NCBI GenBank assembly: GCA_964035575.1
Contig: OZ037837.1
Span: 248,001-312,000 of the forward strand
Direction of reading: 5' to 3'
Source: Rhynchopus sp. YZ270_cl-10
Taxonomy: Eukaryota
DNA length: 64,000 nucleotides
The notes beneath the pieces are model-generated. The model had not been told where the DNA came from and did no database searches. It saw nothing but the letters and a program-made list of their open reading frames with translations. Below are positions 3,293 through 45,867 of this stretch, piece after piece. The position numbers and the translations under genes are program-made. The first letter of the stretch is position 1, and every line of letters begins with the position of its first letter.

Positions 3293-4384
3293 TAAAAAAA
3301 CAAAAACATTACCAACTGATCTCCTTACCAATCTACTATATTGTTTTCATCGACCAGCCATCAGTACATCTGAAAAAAAAAGTTTGTAAAAATACAAGAA
3401 GAGCAATGCCTACTGATAGGTGGAAATGTTCGGAGGAAAATAGTTGAGGATATTTATTTTTAGTTTTTTTGTACAATGAATCGTTGATGAGGCACATTGT
3501 AACGGAAAGGAGGGGGGAAGTTGCGAATTGAATAATTATTTTTTGTTGCATCAACAATCAGCTACCGAGGTAGGATCTGTACACAATGTCGCCCTAAGGC
3601 TTTGTACTTAATCGGTATGGACGGAGGCCATCCTCAACCCGAGAAAGTAGCTTTTATTTGTTGATTTGCATTCAAAGTGCATTTTTTTTTTTGAGAAGAT
3701 GAACCCTAAGCCCCACATGCTTGTCTCACCCACAAATGTGCCCCCTGTAAAGGGAACAATGAATAATCAGAACAAAAGAAAAACAGCAAGAAAGAGCATG
3801 TGTTCCACTGGAGGCGGCTCTGTGACGAAGAACCTTCCACCCAGGGCCAGGGCCAGGGCCGGACTACTGAGTTATACCCCGTGTGACCCTTTTCGAGATG
3901 GGCCCCGAAAAAGCCCTATGAAGAAAGACTGTCACGCAAAATAGGGAAAGGGAAAGGGAAAGGGAAAGGAGATCTGAGATAGATAGAGAGTACCTAAAAG
4001 ACCCGCGAAGGGCGAACAGCAATGATGAAAACGGAGAGGAGGGAAGGGGGATACTTTTATCTCGAAATAGGCGCTACGATGAGGGGGGCGAATGTGGAAG
4101 CCGAAACAACCCAAAACAAATTCCAACAAAAAATCTGATGAAGATGGTGTGGTGATTTGGTGAGGGTAGAGACTGAAACATAAACGGACCCCGGCCAACC
4201 AGGACAAAGCCTGAGGAAAATCAAATAAATATTCTGCCAAATAGCAGTGTGCGTGCCATGTCAAATCAAAAGAACGGTAGTCTCTATCAAAGATCTCCCA
4301 ACACGCAGCGAAGCTGCTCCGCTAAAGCGTGTTTCAGGGGAAAGGGAAAGGGAAAGGGAAAATTTGGCGTTTATATGTCACATA

Positions 4385-11292: not shown

Positions 11293-11455
11293 GGGGAGAT
11301 CTGGTGTACAGATCGTGATCCATCGATGAGGTCCCAAAAGCAAAAATAAAACAATGTGAGGAGGGAGTTTCGTCTACTGTGACGTGCAGAGGAAAGGAAA
11401 ACACACCGGGGGGGGGAAATAATTTGTGAAAACTATTCCTGATGAAGGTGGTGTA
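11293..11455 (-). mobile_element. Short remnant of YR retroelement family B
   Basis: Diverged match to 17095-17207 continuing through GGAAAACACACC into a match to 21316-21358. Confidence 0.8.
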
Positions 11456-11556
11456 CAGATGGAAAAATGCTTGTACGACATCAAACGGTGACTTCGCTAT
11501 TATTTTGTGTTAATCGCATTGCATGCACGCCTTTGGTGCACTGTGATTTATCATGA

Positions 11557-13424: not shown

Positions 13425-14178
13425 GTTTTTGTAGCAAATGCCAGCTGGTCTGAAGAGTGATCTGACCATATTCCCCAGGTATAACTGGTACTCAAAAAAT
13501 GAATTGGCGAAGGAATCTTGCACTTTTGACCATCACACATTACATGTGTTTTTAAGGCAAAAATGACCGAAAAAGCTGCTTTTTGGCTGAATGCCAACCT
13601 TCAAAAATATTGTCATTTTTTTATAACGACTGGCAAAACATTTTTTTTTTGCCCACAATATCTCCTAACTATCCGATTTTCTGGTCCGGTAATTTTTTAG
13701 AAGAACAAACAATTTTTCAAATTTTTCATTTTTTTGGTCAAATCCAGCCTATGGTGAGGGTGTGTGTGGGTGGGTAGTGTGTGTGGGTGTGGGTGGCGCA
13801 CATCCTTATAGTAAAAACAAAAAAACTAACGTTTTTTAGAATTTAAATCTGAACTGGAGTGTGTGTACTGGGCAGTTTCACTCCCCAGTACACACACTCC
13901 AGCTAACTGCACTGGGTTTTCAGGCGAAAAGTGGCCTGTTGAAAAAGTGGTGTTTTTGTAGCAAATGCCAGCTGGTCTGAAGAGTGATCTGACCATATTC
14001 CCCAGGTATAACTGGTACTCAAAAAATGAATTGGCGAAGGAATCTTGCACTTTTGACCATCACACATTACATGTGTTTTTAAGGCAAAAATGACCGAAAA
14101 AGCTGCTTTTTGGCTGAATGCCAACCTTCAAAAATATTGTCATTTTTTTATAACGACTGGCAAAACATTTTTTTTTTG
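13425..14178. repeat. Identical 227-bp direct repeat (13425-13651 / 13952-14178)
   Basis: Base-for-base match at offset 527; the second copy is cut at its T10G tract by element A. Confidence 0.9.
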
Positions 14179-14413
14179 TATACAACAGACGAAGCGGTAC
14201 GCGTACGGTTGTAAAGAAATAATACAGACCGAAATGTTTGGGCGTCTTCGGTTCGAATGATTGGAATTGTGTGTGTAGTTCAGACATAAATACTGGCTCT
14301 TCTATCTTGTTCTTTTATTCATTGTTTTCCTTTCATTGCCCTTTGCTTGTGCTCCCCGACTCCAATTCAACCAACACTTACAGAGGGGGGTCAAAAAGTT
14401 ATTAGCGTTTTTC

Positions 14414-14446
<33 letters not shown>

Positions 14447-14449
<3 letters not shown>

Positions 14450-17100
14450 CCGTTTGAGGGCAGATCCAGAGACACTTTTGTTTTGGATGAGGTGGACTGG
14501 GTGAGCGCTAGACCTTTGCCTATTCCGGCGCAGCCCGCTCTCCTTCAACATGGTTGCGTCTTCCCCTCATGCCCCGTCGCTCATACCTCGCAGTATTGCT
14601 GGATCTGCGGATACGGCGCCCATCAGCAGTGTGTCAAGGATAAGCTCCCCACGCAAGCCATCGCCGCCGCTTTTCTCGTCAATTACCACACCGGTGAGTT
14701 TACCTGCCCTGTATGCGCCTGGGTGGACGAGGAGCCGGCCGATGTAGACCCTGTTGCGAACCTGCCTCAGCCGCCACTACACCAGGATCCTGAGCCTATT
14801 CCGCAGGGGGACCCGATTCAGGACCAGCCGCAGCCTCAGTTGGCACAGCTCATTGCACAGCTCATCGCACAGCAGCAGGACCAGCCGCCACCGCAGCTAC
14901 CCGTACCGCAGGAACAGCAGCAGCCAGGGCACGTGGCGCAGCATCCGCAGCCGCCTGTGCTCCCGGCGCAGCATCCCGTACATCAGAACCAGCAGCAGCC
15001 AGGGCACGTGGCGCAGCATCCGCAGCCGCCTGTGCTCCCGGCGCAGCATCCCGTACATCAAAACCAGCAGCAGCCAGGGCACGTGGCGCAGCATCCGCAG
15101 CCGCCTGTGCTCCCGGCGCAGCTCCCAGGACAGCCGAATCAGCAGCCGCCTCCGCAGATGGCGCAGCTTCCTGCCCAAGGTCTCGCGCAGGCCATCGCGC
15201 AGCTACTCGGGCCTCACGCGGCCCCCCCGCCGGGTCCGCAGCAGCAGCAGCAGCAGCAGCAGCAGCCGGCACAGCTGATCGCGCAGCTCCTGGCCCTACC
15301 GGCCCAACAGCCCCCTCCTGCCCAGCAAGCCCAGCCGCCGGCCCCGGGCGCGGCTCAGCAGCAGGGGGTCCCTCAGCAGGCGCAAGCCGTGCCCCAGCTT
15401 GATGCGCTAGCGCCGATCCTGCAGCAACTCTTGGCTCCGCAGCTGGCCCTACAAAACGTCATCCGGGACGTGGCCCAGCTGCGGAGCCAAGCCGGTATGG
15501 CCCTCCCCCACAATTTTAACCCCTTTTGTGCCATTGATTGGCGTCCCTTCCTCCACAACCCACAGAAGATCGGCGTACTTCGCTGGAAGCTGAAGGAGGA
15601 AGGCGGCGCACCCGCGGTTGCCTTGCGCTCCCTCCCTGCCGCCGCTAGCGCAGAAGATTGTGCCCTCGCACAAGCGCACGACAGAGTGCACGCCACTCTC
15701 TCGGGAATGCGCCGCGAGGACCCCCCCGCCAACGACGACCGCTTGTCCGACCTCCACCAACTGCTCACTTGGGCATATCGGTGTTTGTTGGTCAAGAAGT
15801 ATGATCTCGCAACGGGACATGCTTACCTTGTGCTGGCACTCGAGAAGGATTGGCAATCCTTTTCGACGGGCCACCAGGCACGCTACTCCGACCAGGCCAT
15901 ACGGACTGGGAAGGACGCGGCCCTGGATCGCAAGGACCGGTTTCGAGGGTCGCGGGGGTCGGGGAACAAGCGAGAGAGGGATACCGATAGGGAGCAGGGA
16001 AAGGGGGGGAAGCAGGGGGGGAAGCAGGGGGGGAAGCAGGGGGGGAAGCAGGGGGGGAAGCAGGGGGGGAAGCAGGGGGGGAAGCAGGGGGGGAAGCAGG
16101 GGGGGAAGCAGGGGGGGAAGCAGGGGGGGAAGCAGGGGGGGAAGCAGGGGGGGAAGCAGGGGGGGAAGCAGGGGGGGAAGCAGGGGGGGAAGCAGGGGGG
16201 GAAGCAGGGGGGGAAGCAGGGGGGGAAGCAGGGGGGGAAGCAGGGGGGGAAGCAGGGGGGGAAGCAGGGGGGGAAGCAGGGGGGGAAGCAGGGGGGGAAG
16301 CAGGGGGGGAAGCAGGGGGGGAAGCAGGGGGGGAAGCAGGGGGGGAAGCAGGGGGGGAAGCAGGGGGGGAAGCAGGGGGGGAAGCAGGGGGGGAAGCAGG
16401 GGGGGAAGCAGGGGGGGAAGCAGGGGGGGAAGCAGGGGGGGAAGCAGGGGGGGAAGCAGGGGGGGAAGCAGGGGGGGAAGCAGGGGGGGAAGCAGGGGGG
16501 GAAGCAGGGGGGGAAGCAGGGGGGGAAGCAGGGGGGGAAGCAGGGGGGGAAGCAGGGGGGGAAGCAGGGGGGGAAGCAGGGGGGGAAGCAGGGGGGGAAG
16601 CAGGGGGGGAAGCAGGGGGGGAAGCAGGGGGGGAAGCAGGGGGGGAAGCAGGGGGGGAAGCAGGGGGGGAAGCAGGGGGGGAAGCAGGGGGGGAAGCAGG
16701 GGGGGAAGCAGGGGGGGAAGCAGGGGGGGAAGCAGGGGGGGAAGCAGGGGGGGAAGCAGGGGGGGAAGCAGGGGGGGAAGCAGGGGGGGAAGCAGGGGGG
16801 GAAGCAGGGGGGGAAGCAGGGGGGGAAGCAGGGGGGGAAGCAGGGGGGGAAGCAGGGGGGGAAGCAGGGGGGGAAGCAGGGGGGGAAGCAGGGGGGGAAG
16901 CAGGGGGGGAAGCAGGGGGGGAAGCAGGGGGGGAAGCAGGGGGGGAAGCAGGGGGGGAAGCAGGGGGGGAAGCAGGGGGGGAAGCAGGGGGGGAAGCAGG
17001 GGGGGAAGCAGGGGGGGAAGCAGGGGGGGAAGCAGGGGGGGAAACAGGGGGGGAAGCAGGGGGGGAAGCAGGGGGGGAAGCAGGGGGGGAAGCAGGGGAG
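14447..17100 (+). CDS. Family A Gag-like ORF, 5' part (PHD-like finger, Q/P-rich region, GGKQ repeats); continues at 21502-22675
   Basis: C-x4-C...CxxC-x4-H-xx-C...CxxC at the N-terminus; 3x75-bp internal repeat; array variation (AAG/AAA) is synonymous in the GGKQ frame. Confidence 0.75.
16003..17094 (+). repeat. 12-bp tandem array (GGGGGGGAAGCA) x~91
   Basis: Directly visible; one AAA variant near 17043. Confidence 0.97.
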
Positions 17101-17322
17101 ATCTGGTGTACAAATAGTGATCCGTCGATGAGGTCCTGAAAGCGCAACAAAAACAATGTGAGGAGGGGTTTCGTTTATTGTGACGTACGAGGGAAGGAAA
17201 ACACACCATATACCGCTTTGGTACATCGTTTCCAGTCCGATTGACATGTGTACGACCACCACACTCTTTTGAAGAAAGGACAAGAGAAAAAGAGAAAGAA
17301 TAAAAGAAATCACAAATGCATA

Positions 17323-19866
17323 TCACTCTGAAAAACCAAAAGAATCAACCTTCTTGTGAACACGGTCCCAACACAGCGGTACCGCTATCGTTCCCTCAGA
17401 GAGATGTGTGCGCCGGGATAACTGATCCGCAGTGCTGTTCTCCTCTGAGGCGATCCACTCAACACGAAGGTGGTGTGGTTGCACAAAAGAAAAAATATAA
17501 CGTAAAAATAGGTTCCCTAGACGAGACTTTGTATGTCCCCGTCTGATCGCATGCGCCAAGCCCTCGTTGTCCACCAGCAGGAGGGTCCCACTCTTTGAGG
17601 AACCGCTCTCCAATGCAGCTCTGATGCCCTTCATCGCAGCTTCTGCCTCCAGCAGGAAGATGTCGCGGTGCGTCGCAGCCTGCACCCACTGTCCCCAGTC
17701 CGCCCCGGCCTCGGCATCGTCCAGGTGCTGCCACACAATGCCCCAACCAGTCGTACTCGCGTCCGTCCACACCACCGTGTCCCATGCAGAAGCCGGCTCC
17801 GGCAATGAAAAATCCCGAATGGGGCGCACGAAAGCATCGACAATCTCAGCCATCTCCCTCCGCAAGTCATCCGGGATCACCACCTCTACGTCCCAGTCCA
17901 GTTCGCCTCTCACGATCTTCGTGGACCACCCACTGAGGCACCGGAGTATGGCGTCGAAGTGACACAGCGGAACGCCCAGGACATGTAGCACTCGCATAGC
18001 AATACCCACCATCTGCCATATGCGCCGAATCGACAACTTCCACGCAGACGCAAATGAAACAAAAATCAGCATCACCTTCTCCCTCCACGTGCTCGGAAAC
18101 CGCAATACACCCTGCTCAGGTGACCACTCCACACCAATGTACTCCAAAGTCCGCACTGGGCTGAGGCACGATTTCTTCTCGTTTATTTCTGCTCCTGCAA
18201 AACTGAACCGTTCCAGGATCCCTGCTACCGATGCCTGAACTCCTTCACAAGACTCTCCGAAGACAAGGATGTCGTCCAAGTACACCATCGCACGCACGCC
18301 CACTGCTCTACCCACAAGCGCTTCCGCTGTGTTCTGTGCTATGTAGGGGGCCACAGACCAGCCCATCGGCACCCGAGTCCATCTGTACCAGCTTTGCCCG
18401 ACGCGAAAACAGAAGAAAGAGGAGACGTTGTTGTGGATAGGAAGTTGGTGGAAGAATCCTTTCAGGTCTATTTTTGCCAACCACGTAGCCTTCCTGTGCT
18501 TCAGGATGTGGAACAGGTGCGGCGGGGCGAAGAGGTGGAACTTTGGGGGCTTTGGCATCACGCAGTTGATGGGACGGCCGTCAATCACCGTGCGGTGAAT
18601 CAGCGGATCAGACTTCGGAACCGTAAACACCTTGACCACTCCGCGGACACACTCACGTTTCGTCACCTTCATGCAGACACCAGCCTTCAAACATGCCGAC
18701 ACAAAAGAGGGAGGGAGGTTGGATTTCGGTCCTGGGATGGGGATCTTGCCTGACTTCACCTCCGAAATAGCGTTAGGGTTCGTCATCCAGCTTGCGAAAT
18801 GTGGGTCCATACCCGCTTCCGTCGCCAGTTGCGACAGACGTTGCACGTTGATGGTGGAGGTCGGGAAGGAGTCAAGCTTTGCCTGTCTGGGGGGTGGCTT
18901 ACCCAAATCGGGCCACGTCAGGGAAGACTCTCCGGACTGCTCACCCGATACCTCATTCTCATGTTCCTCCAATATCCCCCGATAGCCCTCCTGCAGACCC
19001 CGAATCACTGAAGAGAAGACAGCAGATTCGCCTCCAGCGTTCGTCGACCCCGTGTGTTCGTCCTCAGGTAACGCACCGTCTCTGCTTCGTTCGCGTGTCT
19101 GAGGAGCTCCCGCAGCTCGCTTCTTTCCACTCCCGTCTTCTCCACCTCCTGGATCGCCCCCCGTCGTAACGAATGTAGCCATGCTGCGTTGGGAAACACC
19201 TTCTTCATAGCACGTTTCAGGCTTTCGTACACATTTGAATTCCCGCCGAAGACTAGCTGTTTTTCGTCCTTGATGCTTCGCATGAATCTCACCGCTACCG
19301 CAGTCAGTCTCCCTGGAGGCATGTTGATGGGGGGCCGCCATCCCTTGCATCCTTTCTCCCGCGCAAAGAATTCCCCCCCCACGGTGTCCAGCTTCTGCGG
19401 TGTGTCCGAGCGGAATTCCCTCCAATCTACCTTCGTGATGAAGCGCAGGTCGGGAACGCGAGCTCTCGATACCCATGCAATCGCGGCCAGTGCTGCAGCC
19501 GGCTTGTTCCCTTGCGACCACAGCGTCTCTATTGCAGTTGAAGCTTCTGTGGTGGTCATTGGTGGTGCCTGTCGCGGGCGGATCATCGTGCTCAAACGTA
19601 TAAGTCCTTTCTTTGCCTCCAGCAGCTTCCGCGTTCGAACTCCTCGCATGCCCATGCTCAGCGACTTTCGCACGATCACCTCCACGTAGGTCTGTACAGT
19701 CTTCGGAGAAGCCGATGCCAGCATCCTGTGCGCGTAGCCGATGATGAGGTCGTCGGGGGGGAGGCCGTCGCGCTGCGTCGCACGCCACTCCATAAACCGG
19801 TCGAAGACCCGGTCTTGCTCCGCCCGGTACTTCGGGGCGTTCGCAAACTGACCGAGCTGGTCCCAT
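17323..19866 (-). CDS. Reverse transcriptase / RNase H (family B)
   Basis: VFTVPK, IDGRPIN, KIDLKGFFHQ, RVPMGW, VYLDDIL, LEYIG; RNase H WTDAS..GWG, IFLLE, LVDN, NSTADQLSR. True start uncertain. Confidence 0.93.
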   Translation of the reverse strand: MGPARSVCERPEVPGGARPGLRPVYGVACDAARRPPPRRPHHRLRAQDAGIGFSEDCTDLRGGDRAKVAEHGHARSSNAEAAGGKERTYTFEHDDPPATGTTNDHHRSFNCNRDAVVAREQAGCSTGRDCMGIESSRSRPALHHEGRLEGIPLGHTAEAGHRGGGILCAGERMQGMAAPHQHASRETDCGSGEIHAKHQGRKTASLRREFKCVRKPETCYEEGVSQRSMATFVTTGGDPGGGEDGSGKKRAAGAPQTRERSRDGALPEDEHTGSTNAGGESAVFSSVIRGLQEGYRGILEEHENEVSGEQSGESSLTWPDLGKPPPRQAKLDSFPTSTINVQRLSQLATEAGMDPHFASWMTNPNAISEVKSGKIPIPGPKSNLPPSFVSACLKAGVCMKVTKRECVRGVVKVFTVPKSDPLIHRTVIDGRPINCVMPKPPKFHLFAPPHLFHILKHRKATWLAKIDLKGFFHQLPIHNNVSSFFCFRVGQSWYRWTRVPMGWSVAPYIAQNTAEALVGRAVGVRAMVYLDDILVFGESCEGVQASVAGILERFSFAGAEINEKKSCLSPVRTLEYIGVEWSPEQGVLRFPSTWREKVMLIFVSFASAWKLSIRRIWQMVGIAMRVLHVLGVPLCHFDAILRCLSGWSTKIVRGELDWDVEVVIPDDLRREMAEIVDAFVRPIRDFSLPEPASAWDTVVWTDASTTGWGIVWQHLDDAEAGADWGQWVQAATHRDIFLLEAEAAMKGIRAALESGSSKSGTLLLVDNEGLAHAIRRGHTKSRLGNLFLRYIFSFVQPHHLRVEWIASEENSTADQLSRRTHLSEGTIAVPLCWDRVHKKVDSFGFSE

Positions 19867-20549
19867 TCCAGCGTCCGGTGCAGCAGCTTCCCCAGTACCT
19901 TCCCGTCTCGTTCCGCAAACACCAAGTCCTCCACAGCTTTCGCCCTCTGCAGCGACATCTTCCTCGTCCCAAGCGACATGTGCTCCGGTAGGTGTGGTGG
20001 GGGCAGGACCTCCTTGGGCGGGGTCACCGGGTCCGTCACCAGTTTCGGCCCTGTTCGCCCCGTGTCGCTCTGTCGCACTGTGACCCAGTTCCTTGGGGAG
20101 TTCCTCGTCCCTGTTCGTCCCTTTTCTCCCTTCTGTCGTCCCTCGTCCCTCTTTGTTTGTTGTAGTTGATGTGATTTTTGACGTCGATTCACCCCATAGT
20201 TCGTTCTGTTCGACCCAGTATTTTGACCCTTGTTTCCCCCGGAGTTGTAGATGGTGTTGTTGTTGATGTTGACGCGGTGGTGGCTACTGGCGAAAAGGCT
20301 TCCCCCCTTTGCCTCCTTTCCGTCCGAAGGTCGCCGATGGGTCGAACCTCGTGCGCTTCGATCCCCTGTCGTTGTAGTTGTTGGAGGAGGTGGTGCTGTG
20401 GCGTCTCTTCGTGCCTGCAAAGCGCGCATTCGCTGCCGTCGCTGCCAGCATCGCTGCACGGCGTTGGGGGGTGGTCGAAGTGCCCATCGATGTACGGGAA
20501 CGGAACGCCCTGGCCGCCTCCAGCCCCATCGTGAAACGGTAGTGCACAC
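19005..20549 (-). CDS. Tyrosine recombinase (family B)
   Basis: Catalytic set intact: SRARVPDL (R), HSLRRG (HxxR), LRH, TVRY. Start uncertain; low-complexity N-terminus overlaps gag. Confidence 0.9.
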   Translation of the reverse strand: MCTTVSRWGWRRPGRSVPVHRWALRPPPNAVQRCWQRRQRMRALQARRDATAPPPPTTTTTGDRSARGSTHRRPSDGKEAKGGSLFASSHHRVNINNNTIYNSGGNKGQNTGSNRTNYGVNRRQKSHQLQQTKRDEGRQKGEKGRTGTRNSPRNWVTVRQSDTGRTGPKLVTDPVTPPKEVLPPPHLPEHMSLGTRKMSLQRAKAVEDLVFAERDGKVLGKLLHRTLEWDQLGQFANAPKYRAEQDRVFDRFMEWRATQRDGLPPDDLIIGYAHRMLASASPKTVQTYVEVIVRKSLSMGMRGVRTRKLLEAKKGLIRLSTMIRPRQAPPMTTTEASTAIETLWSQGNKPAAALAAIAWVSRARVPDLRFITKVDWREFRSDTPQKLDTVGGEFFAREKGCKGWRPPINMPPGRLTAVAVRFMRSIKDEKQLVFGGNSNVYESLKRAMKKVFPNAAWLHSLRRGAIQEVEKTGVERSELRELLRHANEAETVRYLRTNTRGRRTLEANLLSSLQ

Positions 20550-21288
20550 ATAGCAGGTCGTCCAGGAGGATCACGAGGAGGTCCCCCATGTTCTTCCCCT
20601 TCAGAATCTTCTGGATCAGGTTCAGAGTTCCGCGTGCCGCGTCCCGTGTGTCCCCTTCCTTATCAGGCACGTATTTTGCGAGTTGCTCCAACAGTTCGGT
20701 TTGGCCAAACCTGTCGAGTTCTTGCCAACGCGTCGGATTGAGTGCCACGGTTTCAGCGTCGGGCCCCATGTCGTCACTGCGGATGTCGCTGCGGTCGTCC
20801 GGTTGGTCGTCTGGGAAGTCCTGTGCGGCCTCGAAAGCGGCGATGCGGTCCTGCCCATCAGTCTCGCGTACCACCGGCGCAAACACAAAACGTTTCTTCA
20901 CTGCCTCGGCCGCCACTGCCTGCTCCTCTGTCTCCACAGAGGCCTTCGGAGAAGATACGTCCTCAGAGCAAGGGAAAGATGCCGCGTCCTCGCCACTCAG
21001 CAACTGCGCAAAGGTCACGTCCCCAAGGCCGTTCCTCACCGTGGCCAGAAAGAGGGCGAGACGGCGGGGCTTCGTCTTCTCCCACGCCGCCTCATTCGAC
21101 CTGGTGACCTCAATCATCACCACACCCCCCAATCCTGCCAGGGTTGCCAGGATGTAGTCCCCCGGCAAGAAGGAATCCTTCAGCGCCGTCTTCACCACAT
21201 CTGGCGCTCCCGCACAACATACGCGCATCACTTCACTCACCTTGAAGTGACAGGCCTTGCGCCCCTCAAACTCAGCTGTCAAGTCCAT
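20284..21288 (-). CDS. Gag-like ORF1 (family B)
   Basis: First ORF of the element; ATG (MDLTAEF) directly after the 24-bp repeat; basic tail ending RKGGKGGKPFRQ. Assignment is positional. Confidence 0.7.
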   Translation of the reverse strand: MDLTAEFEGRKACHFKVSEVMRVCCAGAPDVVKTALKDSFLPGDYILATLAGLGGVVMIEVTRSNEAAWEKTKPRRLALFLATVRNGLGDVTFAQLLSGEDAASFPCSEDVSSPKASVETEEQAVAAEAVKKRFVFAPVVRETDGQDRIAAFEAAQDFPDDQPDDRSDIRSDDMGPDAETVALNPTRWQELDRFGQTELLEQLAKYVPDKEGDTRDAARGTLNLIQKILKGKNMGDLLVILLDDLLCVHYRFTMGLEAARAFRSRTSMGTSTTPQRRAAMLAATAANARFAGTKRRHSTTSSNNYNDRGSKRTRFDPSATFGRKGGKGGKPFRQ

Positions 21289-21501
21289 ATTCGTACGAGG
21301 GAAGGAAAACACACCGGGGAAACAAATTTGTGGAAAAAATTCCTGATGAAGGTGGTGTGTTTTGACTTTCCCGTTCCAACCTTTGCAGAGCAAAGAGGTA
21401 ATAAAAGCAAAAATGGACCAAAGCATCTTATACTATCATCTACAGTAACACCAGATCTCCCCATGTCGCAGCAAAGCTGCTTTAACAAGTTAACTGGGGA
21501 G

Positions 21502-22675
21502 GGGGAAGCAGGGGGGGAAACAGGGGGGGAAGCAGGGGGGGAAGCAGGGGGGGAAGCAGGGGGGGAAACAGGGGGGGAAGCAGGGGGGGAAACAGGGGGG
21601 GAAACAGGGGGGGAAGCAGGGGGGGAAGCAGGGGGGGAAACAGGGGGGGAAACAGGGGGGGAAGCAGGGGGGGAAACAGGGGGGGAAACAGGGGGGGAAG
21701 CAGGGGGGGAAGCAGGGGGGGAAGCAGGGGGGGAAGCAGGGGGGGAAGCAGGGGGGGAAGCAGGGGGGGAAGCAGGGGGGGAAGCAGGGGGGGAAGCAGG
21801 GGGGGAAGCAGGGGGGGAAGCAGGGGGGGAAACAGGGGGGGAAGCAGGGGGGGAAGCAGGGGGGGAAACAGGGGGGGAAGCAGGGGGGGAAACAGGGGGG
21901 GAAACAGGGGGGGAAGCAGGGGGGGAAGCAGGGGGGGAAGCAGGGGGGGAAGCAGGGGGGGAAGCAGGGGGGGAAGCAGGGGGGGAAACAGGGGGGGAAG
22001 CAGGGGGGGAAGCAGGGGGGGAAGCAGGGGGGGAAACAGGGGGGGAAGCAGGGGGGGAAGCAGGGGGGGAAACAGGGGGGGAAACAGGGGGGGAAGCAGG
22101 GGGGGAAACAGGGGGGGAAACAGGGGGGGAAGCAGGGGGGGAAGCAGGGGGGGAAGCAGGGGGGGAAGCAGGGGGGGAAGCAGGGGGGGAAGCAGGGGGG
22201 GAAGCAGGGGGGGAAGCAGGGGGGGAAGCAGGGGGGGAAGCAGGGGGGGAAGCAGGGGGGGAAGCAGGGGGGGAAGCAGGGGGGGAAGCAGGGGGGGAAA
22301 CAGGGGGGGAAGCAGGGGGGGAAGCAGGGGGGGAAACAGGGGGGGAAACAGGGGGGGAAGCAGGGGGGGAAACAGGGGGGGAAACAGGGGGGGAAGCAGG
22401 GGGGGAAGCAGGGGGGGAAGCAGGGGGGGAAGCAGGGGGGGAAGCAGGGGGGGAAGCAGGGGGGGAAGCAGGGGGGGAAGCAGGGGGGGAAGCAGGGGGG
22501 GAAACAGGGGGGGAAGCAGGGGGGGAAGCAGGGGGGGAAGCAGGGGGGGAAGCAGGGGGGGAAGCAGGGGGGGAAGCAGGGGGGGAAGCAGGGGGGGAAG
22601 CAGGGGGGGAAGCAGGGGGGGAAACAGGGGGGGAAACAGGGGGGGAAACAGGGGACAAAACCTGCGACGCAATGA
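21502..22675 (+). repeat. 12-bp tandem array x~96 (mixed AAG/AAA), the 3' part of family A gag, ending GGKQGTKPATQ-stop
   Basis: Directly visible; TGA at 22673-22675 in the GGKQ frame. Confidence 0.93.
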
Positions 22676-25395
22676 CTAGGGTCCGCTCTTCCGAGCAACT
22701 CTCATCAAGATTCTTTTTACTCTCACCTTCTTTTTCCCCCCCCCTCCAAGTGGGGACGTTCCCGTCAGGTAGTAGCGTCTTTGGGAACTTTTCAGAGGGA
22801 ACAGATCGAGGCCTCTCTCAGGGAAACCCTCGTTCAGTCCCTCGCCCCGTCCACCCAGTCCTCGATGCAGAGTGTTTTACGCACATACCTGCAATTCAAG
22901 GAAAACTGGGAGTGGGCGACGGGCCAGTCCCTGGAACACGCGGTGGCGGTACTCTTGTTTGCAGAAAAGAAGCGGGGAGAGGGGGCAAAAAAGTCCACAG
23001 TCCTTCAGTATACCATGTCCCTAGCGGGTGCACTGAAGAGGCTGGATGGAGACCTGATTTCCCACTCCCAGCTCGTACAAGATTATCGCCAGGCCCTCAA
23101 AAGAGGCGGCGCATTGCTCTCGGAGCGCCAGGCGAAACCTGCCCTGTTTTCACAGGTGCAGACAGTTCTGGATCGGCTTCCGATGGGGGTGCTCCGTCTC
23201 GCCATTGCTTTGTGTTGGGCGGGGGCGGCTCGTGCGTCGGACGTGCTGCGCTTGAGAAGGTCGGAGCTAGTGATTCGGTCGGACTCGTCGATCCAGGTGC
23301 ACTGGACAAAGACGAAGTCCGATCCTTATCAACTAGGTCGCTTCTCGGGAGTGGTGCTCCGTCCTCAAGAGACCCGTCTTCTTTTTGTTCACCTCTCCTC
23401 CCTCACCCCCCAACAACAACTTTTCCCTTTTTCTCTAACGACAAAGGTCATCTCGGACGAGTTGAAGAAGACCTGCCCGGCGCTCACGTCCCACTCTCTC
23501 AGAAGGGGGGCGGTGCAGCACCTGGTGGGCCGGAATGTGGACCTCGAGATGATTCGCCAGCTCACCCGTCACGCGGACGTGAACTCCGTCGTGCGTTATG
23601 CGCACGAGGCGGGGGGTTCGGTCGCGGCGAGTTCGGCGGAAACATCGCGACTCCTCCTATCCTAAATCCCGCTTTCCCCTCCCCTTTATTTACACCGTGT
23701 TCTCAAAGCTTGTTTACTAATCCTTCTTTTTATTCTGCTCCATTTTCTCCTTCCCCCCCTCCCTTTTCTGTGTCTACGTGTGAGGAAGAAGACTACGGGC
23801 CGGGCCTCGACTCGCTATATGATTCTGTTTGTGTGGTTAAGATTCATAAGTCGAGTGTCAGGGCCCCGGCTGTGGTTAGCCTTTCTGAGAAGCTTGCACC
23901 CATTTGTTCCTCCTTTCTGCATTTGGATAGAGTGAAAGAACTGGACAGAGAAGGTGAGCTCAAAGGGATTTTAGATCTTATTACTGATCCCAAATGTTTT
24001 TACTCAGCCTTCAGACCGGGGTCTCTGGACCTCATTTTTTCCAACCCCAGTGTTTTTTCGTCGTCTATCTCCAGAAACATGGCACACCATCTGGACAGGT
24101 TATTGGAATACGGGGTTGTTAAACGTGTGTCAGCTCGTCAAACAGTGGTATTGCACGCATTCACCGTACCTAAGAAATCTGCGGGTGTTCGTTTTGTCGC
24201 AGATGGGCGTAAATTGAATAAGTTAATGTACCGGCCTCCTGAGATGCTTCTTCCGAAGATACCTCAGGTGATCGACAGAGTTCTGGAGTCTTCCTGGGCA
24301 GTACTTGCGGACGGCAAAAGTTGGTTTTACCAATTTGGCCTACACGAGGAAATCCAGGCTTTTTTCGGTATCAATCTGGGTCATCAGAGAGGAGATTTCA
24401 TCCAAACCAGACTCATTGCTATGTGCATGGGGTGGTCTTTCGCACCTTGTATTGCTCACCGCACTGCGAGGGTGCTCCTCCCTGATGACTCGGGTGTTAC
24501 CTGGGTGGACAACTTCATTGTTTTAGATAAGTCTCGCGAGGCTGTTACTTTTTCGTTTTCTCAGTTTTTAGCACGTTGTAAACACGTGAATGCTGTGCTA
24601 AACTTAGAAGATGAGTTTTACGGTGAACCGTTGCAAGTTTTTTGTGCCTTAGGAATTGAGTTTGATTTGGTGAATCACCGTTTTCGCGCTGAGCACAAGT
24701 GGGTCACCAAGTTGTTAAACTGTGAGGAATGGGAAAAGGTCAAGTCAAATTCTTGCACTATTCGCCAATTTTTCAAAGTTTTTGGTTCTTTGGTGTGGAA
24801 CTCTTATTCTGTTCGTTCACCCCTTTGCTACCTTCCATCTTCCCTTTCTTTTATCCGTGATGTGGCGCGGACCACTACCCAGTCACCCGAGGCGTGGGAC
24901 TTACCCCTCGATGTCAGGAGCTCTACCCTCGCCGAGCTCTCACTCCGTATGAGCGAAGTAGAGGTGAACAATTGGCAAGGGAAGCGTCCGACACAGGAGG
25001 TAACTGTGTGGTCTGATGCGTCTCAGGAAGGGTGGGCGGCGGTTTTCGAAGGTGAGAAGGAAACGGTCGCTCAGGGTCTGTTTACAGAGAACCCCGAGTG
25101 GCATATTTATATTAAAGAAATTTTTGCGGCGGCTAAAGCCATCCAACTTACCGCTTCCATGTTTAATAATAAAAAAGTTTTGTTGATGGTTGACAACATG
25201 GCTGCTGTGTACAGCATTCAACGGGGCCATTCGTCCAACTTCATCTCAAATACACTCTTGGCCAAATTATTTCGAATCGCTGAAGAAGCGAATTTGTATA
25301 TCGTGTGCACTTGGGTATCTACTTTGGTTCAGAAGGCGGATCCCTTTTCACGGGATTCGAAAGCCAAGGATCCTATTTTATTGGATGAGTTGTAA
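22672..25395 (+). CDS. Reverse transcriptase / RNase H (family A)
   Basis: AFTVPKK, RFVADGRKLN, LADGKSWFYQ, MCMGW, TWVDNF, ALGIEFD; RNase H WSDAS..GW, IYIKE, MVDN, ADPFSR. ATG overlaps the gag stop (ATGA); start uncertain. Confidence 0.9.
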   Translation: MTRVRSSEQLSSRFFLLSPSFSPPLQVGTFPSGSSVFGNFSEGTDRGLSQGNPRSVPRPVHPVLDAECFTHIPAIQGKLGVGDGPVPGTRGGGTLVCRKEAGRGGKKVHSPSVYHVPSGCTEEAGWRPDFPLPARTRLSPGPQKRRRIALGAPGETCPVFTGADSSGSASDGGAPSRHCFVLGGGGSCVGRAALEKVGASDSVGLVDPGALDKDEVRSLSTRSLLGSGAPSSRDPSSFCSPLLPHPPTTTFPFFSNDKGHLGRVEEDLPGAHVPLSQKGGGAAPGGPECGPRDDSPAHPSRGRELRRALCARGGGFGRGEFGGNIATPPILNPAFPSPLFTPCSQSLFTNPSFYSAPFSPSPPPFSVSTCEEEDYGPGLDSLYDSVCVVKIHKSSVRAPAVVSLSEKLAPICSSFLHLDRVKELDREGELKGILDLITDPKCFYSAFRPGSLDLIFSNPSVFSSSISRNMAHHLDRLLEYGVVKRVSARQTVVLHAFTVPKKSAGVRFVADGRKLNKLMYRPPEMLLPKIPQVIDRVLESSWAVLADGKSWFYQFGLHEEIQAFFGINLGHQRGDFIQTRLIAMCMGWSFAPCIAHRTARVLLPDDSGVTWVDNFIVLDKSREAVTFSFSQFLARCKHVNAVLNLEDEFYGEPLQVFCALGIEFDLVNHRFRAEHKWVTKLLNCEEWEKVKSNSCTIRQFFKVFGSLVWNSYSVRSPLCYLPSSLSFIRDVARTTTQSPEAWDLPLDVRSSTLAELSLRMSEVEVNNWQGKRPTQEVTVWSDASQEGWAAVFEGEKETVAQGLFTENPEWHIYIKEIFAAAKAIQLTASMFNNKKVLLMVDNMAAVYSIQRGHSSNFISNTLLAKLFRIAEEANLYIVCTWVSTLVQKADPFSRDSKAKDPILLDEL
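22781..23665 (+). CDS. Tyrosine recombinase (family A)
   Basis: AARASDV (R), TKTK, HSLRRG, TRH, VVRY; frame is open back to the gag stop; nested within the RT frame. Confidence 0.92.
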   Translation: MGTFQREQIEASLRETLVQSLAPSTQSSMQSVLRTYLQFKENWEWATGQSLEHAVAVLLFAEKKRGEGAKKSTVLQYTMSLAGALKRLDGDLISHSQLVQDYRQALKRGGALLSERQAKPALFSQVQTVLDRLPMGVLRLAIALCWAGAARASDVLRLRRSELVIRSDSSIQVHWTKTKSDPYQLGRFSGVVLRPQETRLLFVHLSSLTPQQQLFPFSLTTKVISDELKKTCPALTSHSLRRGAVQHLVGRNVDLEMIRQLTRHADVNSVVRYAHEAGGSVAASSAETSRLLLS

Positions 25396-25642
25396 TTCTT
25401 TTTACGGACTGGTTGGTCTTTATTTGTATAACAGTTTCGCACCGTTTTGTATCTCCACCTTAATTCTTCTAATTCGTTTCGTCTATTCCCGTTAAATTTG
25501 TTGTGGGAACTTGTCTGTAAGAATTGTTTTTCTGTTTATCTGTTCGCGTGGCGTCCCTCAGGGTCCTTAGGGTCCTGGAGGATGCGTCCAATGAAAATCA
25601 CGTCGTGTAGAAGAGTTCAAGAATGTAGGTTTTATTATTTTT

Positions 25643-25900
25643 GTATACAACAGACGAAGCGGTACGCGTACGGTTGTAAAGAAATAATACAGACCGAAAT
25701 GTTTGGGCGTCTTCGGTTCGAATGATTGGAATTGTGTGTGTAGTTCAGACATAAATACTGGCTCTTCTATCTTGTTCTTTTATTCATTGTTTTCCTTTCA
25801 TTGCCCTTTGCTTGTGCTCCCCGACTCCAATTCAACCAACACTTACAGAGGGGGGTCAAAAAGTTATTAGCGTTTTTCATTTAAAAAAAAAAAAAAAAAA
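25643..25900 (+). repeat. Second copy of the family A 5' end, head-to-tail with the 3' end
   Basis: Identical to 14178-14435 up to the poly(A) tract, then unrelated sequence; third copy at 30595-30855. Confidence 0.9.
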
Positions 25901-26442
25901 GAAAGAAGGAAAGGAGATAATTGGCGTTATTGTTGTTATTGGGATTTACAGTCTCACATTGTCTTTTTCGTTCGTTGTTCTATTTAGACACGTTGGGCCT
26001 AATGCGCCTGCACTGTTCGATGCTAGTATGTAAGCACAGAGCACCTAGGGTCTGACTATTACGCGCAGTACCGTCGAGGGACGTACTGTTGCAACGAACT
26101 TCACACCAAGAAGGAATCCTTCAGCGCCGTCTTCACCACATCTGGCGCTCCCGCACAACATACGCGCATCACTTCACTCACCTTGAAGTGACAGGCCTTG
26201 CGCCCCTCAAACTCAGCTGTCAAGTCCATATTCGTACGAGGGAAGGAAAACACACCGGGGAAACAAATTTGTGGAAAAAATTCCTGATGAAGGTGGTGTG
26301 TTTTGACTTTCCCGTTCCAACCTTTGCAGAGCAAAGAGGTAATAAAAGCAAAAATGGACCAAAGCATCTTATACTATCATCTACAGTAACACCAGATCTC
26401 CCCATGTCGCAGCAAAGCTGCTTTAACAAGTTAACTGGGGAG

Positions 26443-27628
26443 GGGGAAGCAGGGGGGGAAACAGGGGGGGAAGCAGGGGGGGAAGCAGGGGGGGAAGCAG
26501 GGGGGGAAACAGGGGGGGAAGCAGGGGGGGAAACAGGGGGGGAAACAGGGGGGGAAGCAGGGGGGGAAGCAGGGGGGGAAACAGGGGGGGAAACAGGGGG
26601 GGAAGCAGGGGGGGAAACAGGGGGGGAAACAGGGGGGGAAGCAGGGGGGGAAGCAGGGGGGGAAGCAGGGGGGGAAGCAGGGGGGGAAGCAGGGGGGGAA
26701 GCAGGGGGGGAAGCAGGGGGGGAAGCAGGGGGGGAAGCAGGGGGGGAAGCAGGGGGGGAAGCAGGGGGGGAAACAGGGGGGGAAGCAGGGGGGGAAGCAG
26801 GGGGGGAAACAGGGGGGGAAGCAGGGGGGGAAACAGGGGGGGAAACAGGGGGGGAAGCAGGGGGGGAAGCAGGGGGGGAAGCAGGGGGGGAAGCAGGGGG
26901 GGAAGCAGGGGGGGAAGCAGGGGGGGAAACAGGGGGGGAAGCAGGGGGGGAAGCAGGGGGGGAAGCAGGGGGGGAAACAGGGGGGGAAGCAGGGGGGGAA
27001 GCAGGGGGGGAAACAGGGGGGGAAACAGGGGGGGAAGCAGGGGGGGAAACAGGGGGGGAAACAGGGGGGGAAGCAGGGGGGGAAGCAGGGGGGGAAGCAG
27101 GGGGGGAAGCAGGGGGGGAAGCAGGGGGGGAAGCAGGGGGGGAAGCAGGGGGGGAAGCAGGGGGGGAAGCAGGGGGGGAAGCAGGGGGGGAAGCAGGGGG
27201 GGAAGCAGGGGGGGAAGCAGGGGGGGAAGCAGGGGGGGAAACAGGGGGGGAAGCAGGGGGGGAAGCAGGGGGGGAAACAGGGGGGGAAACAGGGGGGGAA
27301 GCAGGGGGGGAAACAGGGGGGGAAACAGGGGGGGAAGCAGGGGGGGAAGCAGGGGGGGAAGCAGGGGGGGAAGCAGGGGGGGAAGCAGGGGGGGAAGCAG
27401 GGGGGGAAGCAGGGGGGGAAGCAGGGGGGGAAGCAGGGGGGGAAGCAGGGGGGGAAACAGGGGGGGAAGCAGGGGGGGAAGCAGGGGGGGAAGCAGGGGG
27501 GGAAGCAGGGGGGGAAGCAGGGGGGGAAGCAGGGGGGGAAGCAGGGGGGGAAGCAGGGGGGGAAGCAGGGGGGGAAACAGGGGGGGAAACAGGGGGGGAA
27601 ACAGGGGACAAAACCTGCGACGCAATGA
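26443..27628 (+). repeat. Duplicated 12-bp array x~97
   Basis: Same AAG/AAA pattern as 21502-22675 with one extra unit. Confidence 0.93.
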
Positions 27629-30348
27629 CTAGGGTCCGCTCTTCCGAGCAACTCTCATCAAGATTCTTTTTACTCTCACCTTCTTTTTCCCCCCCCCTCC
27701 AAGTGGGGACGTTCCCGTCAGGTAGTAGCGTCTTTGGGAACTTTTCAGAGGGAACAGATCGAGGCCTCTCTCAGGGAAACCCTCGTTCAGTCCCTCGCCC
27801 CGTCCACCCAGTCCTCGATGCAGAGTGTTTTACGCACATACCTGCAATTCAAGGAAAACTGGGAGTGGGCGACGGGCCAGTCCCTGGAACACGCGGTGGC
27901 GGTACTCTTGTTTGCAGAAAAGAAGCGGGGAGAGGGGGCAAAAAAGTCCACAGTCCTTCAGTATACCATGTCCCTAGCGGGTGCACTGAAGAGGCTGGAT
28001 GGAGACCTGATTTCCCACTCCCAGCTCGTACAAGATTATCGCCAGGCCCTCAAAAGAGGCGGCGCATTGCTCTCGGAGCGCCAGGCGAAACCTGCCCTGT
28101 TTTCACAGGTGCAGACAGTTCTGGATCGGCTTCCGATGGGGGTGCTCCGTCTCGCCATTGCTTTGTGTTGGGCGGGGGCGGCTCGTGCGTCGGACGTGCT
28201 GCGCTTGAGAAGGTCGGAGCTAGTGATTCGGTCGGACTCGTCGATCCAGGTGCACTGGACAAAGACGAAGTCCGATCCTTATCAACTAGGTCGCTTCTCG
28301 GGAGTGGTGCTCCGTCCTCAAGAGACCCGTCTTCTTTTTGTTCACCTCTCCTCCCTCACCCCCCAACAACAACTTTTCCCTTTTTCTCTAACGACAAAGG
28401 TCATCTCGGACGAGTTGAAGAAGACCTGCCCGGCGCTCACGTCCCACTCTCTCAGAAGGGGGGCGGTGCAGCACCTGGTGGGCCGGAATGTGGACCTCGA
28501 GATGATTCGCCAGCTCACCCGTCACGCGGACGTGAACTCCGTCGTGCGTTATGCGCACGAGGCGGGGGGTTCGGTCGCGGCGAGTTCGGCGGAAACATCG
28601 CGACTCCTCCTATCCTAAATCCCGCTTTCCCCTCCCCTTTATTTACACCGTGTTCTCAAAGCTTGTTTACTAATCCTTCTTTTTATTCTGCTCCATTTTC
28701 TCCTTCCCCCCCTCCCTTTTCTGTGTCTACGTGTGAGGAAGAAGACTACGGGCCGGGCCTCGACTCGCTATATGATTCTGTTTGTGTGGTTAAGATTCAT
28801 AAGTCGAGTGTCAGGGCCCCGGCTGTGGTTAGCCTTTCTGAGAAGCTTGCACCCATTTGTTCCTCCTTTCTGCATTTGGATAGAGTGAAAGAACTGGACA
28901 GAGAAGGTGAGCTCAAAGGGATTTTAGATCTTATTACTGATCCCAAATGTTTTTACTCAGCCTTCAGACCGGGGTCTCTGGACCTCATTTTTTCCAACCC
29001 CAGTGTTTTTTCGTCGTCTATCTCCAGAAACATGGCACACCATCTGGACAGGTTATTGGAATACGGGGTTGTTAAACGTGTGTCAGCTCGTCAAACAGTG
29101 GTATTGCACGCATTCACCGTACCTAAGAAATCTGCGGGTGTTCGTTTTGTCGCAGATGGGCGTAAATTGAATAAGTTAATGTACCGGCCTCCTGAGATGC
29201 TTCTTCCGAAGATACCTCAGGTGATCGACAGAGTTCTGGAGTCTTCCTGGGCAGTACTTGCGGACGGCAAAAGTTGGTTTTACCAATTTGGCCTACACGA
29301 GGAAATCCAGGCTTTTTTCGGTATCAATCTGGGTCATCAGAGAGGAGATTTCATCCAAACCAGACTCATTGCTATGTGCATGGGGTGGTCTTTCGCACCT
29401 TGTATTGCTCACCGCACTGCGAGGGTGCTCCTCCCTGATGACTCGGGTGTTACCTGGGTGGACAACTTCATTGTTTTAGATAAGTCTCGCGAGGCTGTTA
29501 CTTTTTCGTTTTCTCAGTTTTTAGCACGTTGTAAACACGTGAATGCTGTGCTAAACTTAGAAGATGAGTTTTACGGTGAACCGTTGCAAGTTTTTTGTGC
29601 CTTAGGAATTGAGTTTGATTTGGTGAATCACCGTTTTCGCGCTGAGCACAAGTGGGTCACCAAGTTGTTAAACTGTGAGGAATGGGAAAAGGTCAAGTCA
29701 AATTCTTGCACTATTCGCCAATTTTTCAAAGTTTTTGGTTCTTTGGTGTGGAACTCTTATTCTGTTCGTTCACCCCTTTGCTACCTTCCATCTTCCCTTT
29801 CTTTTATCCGTGATGTGGCGCGGACCACTACCCAGTCACCCGAGGCGTGGGACTTACCCCTCGATGTCAGGAGCTCTACCCTCGCCGAGCTCTCACTCCG
29901 TATGAGCGAAGTAGAGGTGAACAATTGGCAAGGGAAGCGTCCGACACAGGAGGTAACTGTGTGGTCTGATGCGTCTCAGGAAGGGTGGGCGGCGGTTTTC
30001 GAAGGTGAGAAGGAAACGGTCGCTCAGGGTCTGTTTACAGAGAACCCCGAGTGGCATATTTATATTAAAGAAATTTTTGCGGCGGCTAAAGCCATCCAAC
30101 TTACCGCTTCCATGTTTAATAATAAAAAAGTTTTGTTGATGGTTGACAACATGGCTGCTGTGTACAGCATTCAACGGGGCCATTCGTCCAACTTCATCTC
30201 AAATACACTCTTGGCCAAATTATTTCGAATCGCTGAAGAAGCGAATTTGTATATCGTGTGCACTTGGGTATCTACTTTGGTTCAGAAGGCGGATCCCTTT
30301 TCACGGGATTCGAAAGCCAAGGATCCTATTTTATTGGATGAGTTGTAA
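27625..30348 (+). CDS. RT / RNase H (family A), duplicate copy
   Basis: Translation identical to 22672-25395. Confidence 0.88.
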   Translation: MTRVRSSEQLSSRFFLLSPSFSPPLQVGTFPSGSSVFGNFSEGTDRGLSQGNPRSVPRPVHPVLDAECFTHIPAIQGKLGVGDGPVPGTRGGGTLVCRKEAGRGGKKVHSPSVYHVPSGCTEEAGWRPDFPLPARTRLSPGPQKRRRIALGAPGETCPVFTGADSSGSASDGGAPSRHCFVLGGGGSCVGRAALEKVGASDSVGLVDPGALDKDEVRSLSTRSLLGSGAPSSRDPSSFCSPLLPHPPTTTFPFFSNDKGHLGRVEEDLPGAHVPLSQKGGGAAPGGPECGPRDDSPAHPSRGRELRRALCARGGGFGRGEFGGNIATPPILNPAFPSPLFTPCSQSLFTNPSFYSAPFSPSPPPFSVSTCEEEDYGPGLDSLYDSVCVVKIHKSSVRAPAVVSLSEKLAPICSSFLHLDRVKELDREGELKGILDLITDPKCFYSAFRPGSLDLIFSNPSVFSSSISRNMAHHLDRLLEYGVVKRVSARQTVVLHAFTVPKKSAGVRFVADGRKLNKLMYRPPEMLLPKIPQVIDRVLESSWAVLADGKSWFYQFGLHEEIQAFFGINLGHQRGDFIQTRLIAMCMGWSFAPCIAHRTARVLLPDDSGVTWVDNFIVLDKSREAVTFSFSQFLARCKHVNAVLNLEDEFYGEPLQVFCALGIEFDLVNHRFRAEHKWVTKLLNCEEWEKVKSNSCTIRQFFKVFGSLVWNSYSVRSPLCYLPSSLSFIRDVARTTTQSPEAWDLPLDVRSSTLAELSLRMSEVEVNNWQGKRPTQEVTVWSDASQEGWAAVFEGEKETVAQGLFTENPEWHIYIKEIFAAAKAIQLTASMFNNKKVLLMVDNMAAVYSIQRGHSSNFISNTLLAKLFRIAEEANLYIVCTWVSTLVQKADPFSRDSKAKDPILLDEL
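27734..28618 (+). CDS. Tyrosine recombinase (family A), duplicate copy
   Basis: Translation identical to 22781-23665. Confidence 0.9.
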   Translation: MGTFQREQIEASLRETLVQSLAPSTQSSMQSVLRTYLQFKENWEWATGQSLEHAVAVLLFAEKKRGEGAKKSTVLQYTMSLAGALKRLDGDLISHSQLVQDYRQALKRGGALLSERQAKPALFSQVQTVLDRLPMGVLRLAIALCWAGAARASDVLRLRRSELVIRSDSSIQVHWTKTKSDPYQLGRFSGVVLRPQETRLLFVHLSSLTPQQQLFPFSLTTKVISDELKKTCPALTSHSLRRGAVQHLVGRNVDLEMIRQLTRHADVNSVVRYAHEAGGSVAASSAETSRLLLS

Positions 30349-31218
30349 TTCTTTTTACGGACTGGTTGGTCTTTATTTGTATAACAGTTCGCACCGTTTT
30401 GTATCTCCACCTTAATTCTTCTAATTCGTTTCGTCTATTCCCGTTAAATTTGTTGTGGGAACTTGTCTGTAAGAATTGTTTTTCTGTTTATCTGTTCGCG
30501 TGGCGTCCCTCAGGGTCCTTAGGGTCCTGGAGGATGCGTCCAATGAAAATCACGTCGTGTAGAAGAGTTCAAGAATGTAGGTTTTATTATTTTTGTATAC
30601 AACAGACGAAGCGGTACGCGTACGGTTGTAAAGAAATAATACAGACCGAAATGTTTGGGCGTCTTCGGTTCGAATGATTGGAATTGTGTGTGTAGTTCAG
30701 ACATAAATACTGGCTCTTCTATCTTGTTCTTTTATTCATTGTTTTCCTTTCATTGCCCTTTGCTTGTGCTCCCCGACTCCAATTCAACCAACACTTACAG
30801 AGGGGGGTCAAAAAGTTATTAGCGTTTTTCATTTAAAAAAAAAAAAAAAAAAAAAGAAAGAAGGAAAAGAGATAATTGGCGTTATTGTTGTTATTGGGAT
30901 TTACAGTCTCACATTGTCTTTTTCGTTCGTTGTTCTATTTAGACACGTTGGGCCTAATGCGCCTGCACTGTTCGATGCTAGTATGTAAGCACAGAGCACC
31001 TAGGGTCTGACTATTACGCGCAGTACCGTCGAGGGACGTACTGTTGCAACGAACTTCACACCATTTCTCCGACTGTTTAGGTAGCCGCTTACATACAGCT
31101 CACAGGCGTCGCAGGCGGTGCACAAATACATCAGGAAGCACCTCTTGTGCCCCATACACACAGAGGATGTAACTGCCAACAGCGAAGTCCAGGTAGTCGG
31201 AAGAGCACAACTATTAGT

Positions 31219-34260: not shown

Positions 34261-34626
34261 TCAGCTACAGAGAGCTTCGTGCAGCAGGTCAACGAAGGTG
34301 GGCATGACAACAGATTTATCATAATGCGCACCGTCCTTAGAGAGTTTCAACTGTCCGAGAGATATTTGGAAGAAGTCCAGATGGCGTATCCGCGTGCACA
34401 TTGAGAGTGCATCGCGCGCAATCCTGTTGAAGATGCCCAGACGCGCATTGGTCACCCTGAAGTTGTCGACGCTCGCAGGCTTGCCCTTCGGCCATGCAGG
34501 TGAGCCGAACCACACTGTCTCACCCTTTCGTCTGCACAGCACCTCAGCAACGCCTAACATGTGACGGTGCATCCTGTCGTAGCTCCACTGCCCCCATGAA
34601 GCAGGGTGTGCGCCAAACCCGATGAC
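34261..34626 (-). CDS. SGNH/PC-esterase-like protein, exon 2
   Basis: Acceptor CCAACAG|GTC; reads VIGFGAH... in frame with exon 1; DGAHY (DxxH) near the C-terminus. Confidence 0.75.
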   Translation of the reverse strand, partial: VIGFGAHPASWGQWSYDRMHRHMLGVAEVLCRRKGETVWFGSPAWPKGKPASVDNFRVTNARLGIFNRIARDALSMCTRIRHLDFFQISLGQLKLSKDGAHYDKSVVMPTFVDLLHEALCS

Positions 34627-45682: not shown

Positions 45683-45867
45683 TGTGTTCGTGTGTTTTTG
45701 TTACAGCCGTATCTTAGGCAGAAGACACCCGGCACTAAGACCTGTGACTGTCCTGAACCGCGCCAGTACCGGTACGGGTGTTACCCGGTGCCCTCTTGTG
45801 GGGAACACTTGCAGCGGGTGTTGATGTCCACTATTGACACAGTTGGTGAGCAAGACCGAGGTAAATA

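Follow-up and report, generated by a model that had tools for sequence, protein, structure and literature searches.

The elements at the locus and their proteins

The window studied here (the whole 64-kb stretch of DNA that was analysed) contains a full-length tyrosine-recombinase (YR) retrotransposon, element B, and a second YR retroelement, element C, whose Gag-like ORF ends in approximately 190 GGKQ units and received the insertion of element B in that tail. Their main features are:

17097..21500, minus strand: element B, full-length tyrosine-recombinase retrotransposon, with 5' start TCCCCAG and 3' end AGATCTCC
20284..21288, minus strand: ORF1 of element B, 334 codons, Gag-like by position alone
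19005..19979, minus strand: tyrosine recombinase ORF of element B, with a candidate ATG start and the R, HxxR, H and Y motifs
17323..18990, minus strand: RT-RNase H part of element B, in a frame open from 20283 that overlaps the recombinase ORF
21292..21315, minus strand: 5' copy of a 24-bp perfect direct repeat, just before the ORF1 ATG
17184..17207, minus strand: 3' copy of the same repeat, 88 bp before the element B 3' end
14170-25907, plus strand: element C, with an A repeat at both ends (273 bp) and a B segment before the second A
16002..17094, continuing at 21503-22654, plus strand: target 12-mer array, the GGKQ-coding tail of the element C Gag-like ORF

The genes of element B follow the order Gag-like, YR and RT/RH, with overlapping YR and RT frames. 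ORF1 gave no match in a Pfam scan. The recombinase matched Phage_integrase with an E value of 0.019, under the curated cut-off, and had an Atlas score of 0.98 to YR clusters. The RT-RNase H part matched RVT_1 (E 2e-21) and RVT_3 (E 0.002) and contains YLDD and the RNase H acidic motifs, its ORF stopping about 30 residues past the last of the latter. No methyltransferase was detected, at E values up to 1, in any of the 13 proteins scanned (13/13, those of element B included). A repeat comparison of the ends of element B found neither long inverted repeats nor split direct repeats, the longest perfect inverted pair between them being 15 bp. The 24-bp direct repeat was considered as a split direct repeat and rejected, being non-terminal and devoid of a B pair; it is the joining point of short element B derivatives, in a manner resembling solo-LTR formation. 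Judged from its sequence, element B is a member of the order DIRS that lacks defining features of both the DIRS1-like and the VIPER-like groups.

The RT of element B has seven related clusters (37-68% identity), all of them from ENA assemblies, and is similar to Atlas clusters for which the few members on record are Euglenozoa. In an RT core tree (FastTree, 55/55 sequences, 229 columns, LTR-type RT root, with no named VIPER, TATE or DIRS1 among the sequences) it belongs to a clade of 8 sequences (support 0.996), sister (support 0.978) to a group formed by element C, Diplonema papillatum proteins and one distant sequence. The RT-RNase H of element C is 43-46% identical to near-full-length D. 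papillatum proteins; from this and the euglenozoan clusters close to the element B RT, the host is likely a diplonemid or a relative of one. Element C is a split-direct-repeat-like relative, with no second B segment seen among its repeats. An inverted junction copy in element C was also considered and discarded, since only a 10-nt palindrome was found. A remnant at 3128-3305 shows the A-then-B order expected for a SIRE-like end.

Other features accompany these elements. An apparent 4.95-kb tandem duplication (21165-26110 and 26107-31063, 99.9% identical over the 3.46 kb compared) includes the first 345 bp of element B and the 3' half of element C. Long ORFs arranged in tandem on the minus strand (31219-50207 and 57967-63546) are consistent with polycistronic gene arrays; among the ORFs scanned, two in the former encode adenylate/guanylate cyclases and one in the latter a B-box/BspA-type LRR protein. 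The stretches 389-900 and 2187-2317 are non-coding and AT-rich, with several bounding inverted repeats, and possibly represent a non-autonomous DNA transposon. An Rfam scan of the 64-kb window gave no matches.

A 5' module complementary to the element ends

The 5' end of element B and the two shorter elements related to it comprise the following features:

21448..21500, minus strand: 5' module of element B, a hairpin closed by the 5' terminus, then the complement of the 3' end
21448..21463, minus strand: internal complementary segment, 16 nt, element B positions 38-53
17097..17109, minus strand: 3' terminus of element B, partner of the internal segment
21468..21480, minus strand: GCAGC-TTT-GCTGC hairpin, sequence kept in sister element D
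21482..21493, minus strand: proposed AT side hairpin, weak and not kept in D
26389..26441, minus strand: identical second copy of the 5' module, inside the 4.95-kb tandem duplication
3968..4341, minus strand: element D, a non-coding sister element of 374 bp that lies in a (TTTCCC)n run and retains both ends
4276..4300, minus strand: internal segment of D, complementary to the D 3' end (3968-3994)
11295..11458, minus strand: element E, a short copy of the B family with no 5' module, situated just before a DOMON/ferric-reductase ORF

Between 21448 and 21501 (minus strand) the 54 letters read exactly as an earlier note on this DNA had written them, and that note had described the last 16 nt as a complement of the element's own circle junction. 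The segment does pair with both ends, namely with the terminal 13 nt on the 3' side and the initial 6 nt on the 5' side of the element, the two arms sharing TCC and 3 further pairs beyond a bulge reaching 21445; 21448-21462 and 17095-17109 form a perfect 15-bp inverted copy. Its exact identity with the circle junction is unproven, and for element B doubtful, because both the empty-site arithmetic and a head-to-tail contig described below point to a junction that is longer by 3 nt. Of 200,000 head/tail pairs sampled at random from the window, 6 had a 100-nt head with an exact complement of at least 13 nt to a terminus. No segment-like complement was seen near the 3' end of element B. The module copy at 26389-26441 was rejected as an independent copy, as it is part of the tandem duplication.

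Pair probabilities (P) were computed for the 54-mer at 37 C as RNA, as element-strand DNA and as cDNA. Two parts of the three-way junction drawn in the earlier note are predicted to form: the outer stem, between the first 7 letters and 21457-21463 (P of each pair 0.93-1.0, whichever of the three molecules is folded), and the GCAGC/GCTGC hairpin (P about 0.9 in element B). The junction as drawn fails on its third part, a 5-bp AT stem with a 2-nt loop being sterically disallowed; with a 4-bp AT stem, the three-way structure has a P of 0.002 in RNA, 0.16 in element-strand DNA and 0.20 in cDNA, and ties for the minimum on the cDNA strand only. The element D module folds as a single unbranched bulged hairpin, and the side hairpin is not conserved there, because a different register takes the place of the GCAGC pairing. 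For D, a CGC/GCG side hairpin was tried as an analogue and rejected (P 0.00).

Element D can be aligned with element B in the 5' untranslated part and over the final 100 nt, and retains the C-rich start, the GCAGC-TTY-GCTGC word and GGGAGATCT. Past this octamer, the internal segment and the 3' end of D both differ from those of B yet match each other: read by eye, 20 of 23 positions of the D segment agree with the D 3' end, given one 4-nt gap, and the cross-family segment-end match between B and D is limited to the shared AGATCTCC octamer. The segment occupies the same position in both elements, behind the same hairpin, and in B, D and E the palindrome AGATCT and the following CC are invariant while their neighbours covary. 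The gain in energy upon cofolding was -17.2 and -19.2 kcal/mol for the cognate pairs as RNA vs. -7.8 and -9.1 kcal/mol for the crossed ones, and -13.2 and -14.1 vs. -6.4 and -9.9 kcal/mol as cDNA. In a duplex test with 1000 shuffles that retained the shared octamer, the cognate energy was reached as RNA by 7 shuffles for B/B and 0 for D/D (6 and 1 as DNA), and the crossed energy by 147 for B/D and 227 for D/B (36 and 148 as DNA, the B/D cross pair, at 36/1000, being not fully null). Compensatory change, which the earlier note had proposed looking for, was thus found: D has changed its segment and its 3' end together, and the cognate duplexes beat the shuffles while the crossed RNA duplexes do not. 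This covariation comprises two families (B and D) and hence one independent comparison, in which D, a non-coding element, is probably old.

In B the 5' arm spans 6 bp, and in D it is weak (P 0.46-0.84). In the RNA cofold of element B both ends sit on the segment simultaneously, with flaps of 1 nt and 2 nt; in D, and in both cDNA cofolds, the 5' arm is displaced when the 3' end binds.

Some further observations concern D and E. A Tc1/mariner-type transposon with 53-bp terminal inverted repeats (4377-5427) directly adjoins element D. The motif CACACCAYCTTCATCAG followed by a T-rich stretch is kept in B (21341-21357), E (11437-11453) and D (4134-4149), all on the minus strand, amid diverged sequence, and could be a splice acceptor, a promoter or a packaging signal. 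SIRE has a role as a splice signal. Element E, with the candidate ATG of the DOMON/ferric-reductase ORF about 55 bp downstream, might supply a trans-splicing signal.

Insertion sites, junctions and copies in public sequencing runs

The earlier note had taken CTCCCC as the core of insertion, which does not hold at this locus. Left flanks differ immediately 5' of the T in TCCCC (among the matches listed), which takes the C at 21501 out of the fixed part of element B; the right end of D terminates after TCC; and, assuming a perfect empty repeat, a 2-nt CC core directly after AGATCT is compatible with the insertions of both elements, longer solutions adding a repeat unit. The core would be 2-3 nt long (CC/TCC), with the C at 21501, like the CC at 17095-17096, belonging to either core or flank. 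Left flanks ending in A also occur, a poor fit to a fixed CC core (among the matches listed).

According to the same empty-site arithmetic, the implied D junction matches the D internal segment, and the implied B junction, AGATCTCC directly followed by TCCCCAG, is 3 nt longer than the segment. A head-to-tail contig found in runs X1 and X3 (one study, among the matches listed) connects the 5' end to the 3' end at the same 3-nt-longer spacing, presuming that the reported place is the last aligned letter, as other rows indicate; it may stem from the junction of a circle or else from tandem insertion at a TCC repeat. Since the shorter junction better suits the copies that have A ahead of TCCCC, both junction forms may exist.

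Most of element B is present in 5 of 10 public runs, from two studies, one of which runs may be the window's own source; runs X6 and X7, with thin coverage of the element, were left out. In X1, the summed contig depth (which is not a copy number) was 8046 and 6918 in the end bins of element B vs. approximately 1100 in the interior, and contigs join its 3' and 5' parts over large gaps, one of them with just 27 letters between 17141 and 21448. The end-bin depth and these gap-bridging contigs point to many short derivatives retaining both ends. The internal segment is present in the shortest derivative seen, and in one diverged relative the similarity to the 5' side of element B spans 54 letters only.

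The comparison of the 5' 88 nt covered 24 of the 47 rows with loose ends and 32 of the 144 pieces, that is, the matches listed. Among these, the similarity of diverged copies ends at 21444-21448, the edge of the segment, with loose ends starting there in 3 rows of X1, 2 of X3 and 2 of X4, the latter from another study. The variants compatible with the pairing, again among the matches listed, are a loop substitution at 21474, a linker insertion after 21463 and a common 1-base insertion after 21483; two within the segment, each in single contigs, go against it (a substitution at 21455 and a 3-base loss at 21459, among the matches listed), and several of the pieces listed differ at 4-5 positions beyond those itemised.

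Relatives were also sought more widely. Protein-guided scans found none in 219 metagenome stretches and none in 38 viral-contig stretches. The DNA pattern common to B and D occurred at 58 metagenome loci, all of them without an RT/YR match and without a distal complement exceeding 8 nt, and at no locus in the viral contigs.

A functional reading of the segment and its place among known elements

The earlier note had proposed a miniature, 5'-located internal complementary region (ICR) without long terminal repeats, a proposal supported by the matched change in D, the diverged copies conserved up to the segment edge and the lack of long ITRs or split repeats. The end signal of element B is probably a functional variant of the DIRS ICR, and, all functional readings being taken together, a functional pairing of the segment with the ends is very likely. 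Among these readings, we lean, at somewhat better than even chances, toward a splint that aligns both termini for joining into a circle. The segment would hold the two termini adjacent in single-stranded RNA or cDNA, the aligned termini would be joined, and the recombinase would insert the resulting circle at a short CC/TCC core in pyrimidine repeats. Trimming of the flaps would yield a junction exactly equal to the segment; their retention would yield the 3-nt-longer junction seen for the B site and the contig. Such pairing would also mark the element boundaries in a genome that is likely transcribed polycistronically. The splint is supported by the 15-bp inverted copy and its low frequency by chance, the matched change in D, the conservation up to the segment edge, the arrangement of the DIRS1 arms and the DIRS-1 model, in which the ICR acts after first-strand synthesis (PMC7192593), and it is weakened by the dependence on one non-coding sister element, the displaceable 6-bp 5' arm, the longer B junction, the A-ending flanks, the B/D cross pair that is not fully null as DNA and the chance that the head-to-tail contig is a tandem insertion. 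Trans-splicing downstream of the module, if it takes place, would remove the module from the RNA, which also counts against the splint.

A part of the same evidence could be read as self-priming, the main alternative though an unlikely one, in which the segment would be a primer-binding site to which the element's own RNA would anneal by its 3' end. The RT would copy the first 40 nt, and the new GGGGA end would jump to the 3' TCC, giving a terminally redundant, circularisable cDNA. The segment sits at a PBS-like place, a short way in from the 5' end; of its two arms, the covarying one is the long arm (13-17 bp) directed to the 3' end; a jump with or without homology would produce both junction lengths; the element strand is weakly favoured by G-T wobbles found in the middle stems of both B and D; and no DIRS primer has been reported (PMC7192593). 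Self-priming would, however, require a precise, non-polyadenylated RNA 3' end; Tf1 and Tj1 are described as self-priming with the 5' end instead (PMC4600332), and reverse transcription of DIRS-1 reportedly starts without the ICR (PMC7192593).

Integron integrases recognise folded attC sites. By analogy, the joined ends and the segment might form a duplex with a 3-nt bulge that would be read by the recombinase as a folded single-stranded recombination site, which we consider improbable. The invariance of AGATCT and CC described above would suit such a site, as would the 3 extrahelical bases left by the inferred B junction and the single-stranded cDNA described for DIRS-1 (PMC7192593), but the inferred D junction has no bulge. 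Least probable of all, with only a slim chance, the segment would be a functionless by-product of RT fold-back or template switching that copied the 3' end into the 5' region; repeated events of this kind would also make the segment follow the 3' end of each family, and the D match is imperfect, but the equal placement of both segments behind the same hairpin, the similarity of diverged copies stopping at the segment edge (among the matches listed) and the retention of the segment in the shortest derivative seen argue against it.

Taking the splint as the preferred reading, element B would in effect combine a predicted DIRS-type ICR with a VIPER-like body. DIRS1-like elements are described as carrying a methyltransferase, ITRs that range from 66 to 316 bp and, at the 3' end, an ICR of 85-130 bp with a 3-bp overlap (PMC3266345, PMC3783388, PMC13465315, PMC8969392), their arms overlapping on 3 nt (PMC3266345); in DIRS-1, the ICR is reported to be required after first-strand synthesis and the cDNA to be single-stranded (PMC7192593). 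Element B shares with them an internal region complementary to both termini (13 nt at the 3' end and 6 nt at the 5' end), but it has neither ITRs nor a methyltransferase, its recombinase precedes the RT, and its segment is 16 nt long at positions 38-53 instead of 85-130 bp at the 3' end. The arms of B share TCC, reminiscent of the 3-bp repeated junction of DIRS1-like elements, but the calculation from the empty site points to a CC core of 2 nt and, for B, to a longer junction.

VIPER and TATE present the order Gag-like, YR and RT/RH with split direct repeats (PMC6681497, PMC12278014). Element B has this gene order, also with overlapping YR and RT frames (PMC6681497, PMC12278014), together with a short non-autonomous derivative like SIRE, insertion into short tandem repeats like TATE and a likely euglenozoan host. 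It differs in lacking the A1...B1-A2-B2 arrangement, and its junction copy is inverted and 5', not direct and 3'. With Tf1 and Tj1 it shares a segment just inside the 5' end that is complementary to the RNA's own 5' terminus (PMC4600332); unlike them, it has no LTR or DDE integrase, and its 5' arm is 6 nt long, the longer arm going to the 3' end. The Diplonema genome paper mentions TATE-like ORFs and defers the analysis of element ends (PMC10161547). A 5'-located ICR was not found in the accessible portions of the YR-element literature searched; Repbase entries and paper supplements could hold a precedent.

The published reviews consulted recognise two end layouts only (ITR plus ICR, and split direct repeats). 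Element B might, tentatively and against the balance of probability, represent a third end architecture: a 53-nt 5' hairpin module on which the RNA 3' end would prime and both ends would be joined. It would have arisen from split-direct-repeat elements of euglenozoans, or in parallel with them, and would be enough in cis for the mobilisation of derivatives of about 130-370 bp. The whole cis signal is seemingly about 53 nt plus 13 nt, so it can be made as oligonucleotides and tested with purified RT and recombinase. With element C in the same window and its RT in the sister clade, the switch between the direct 3' junction copy and the inverted 5' one can be studied within one genome.
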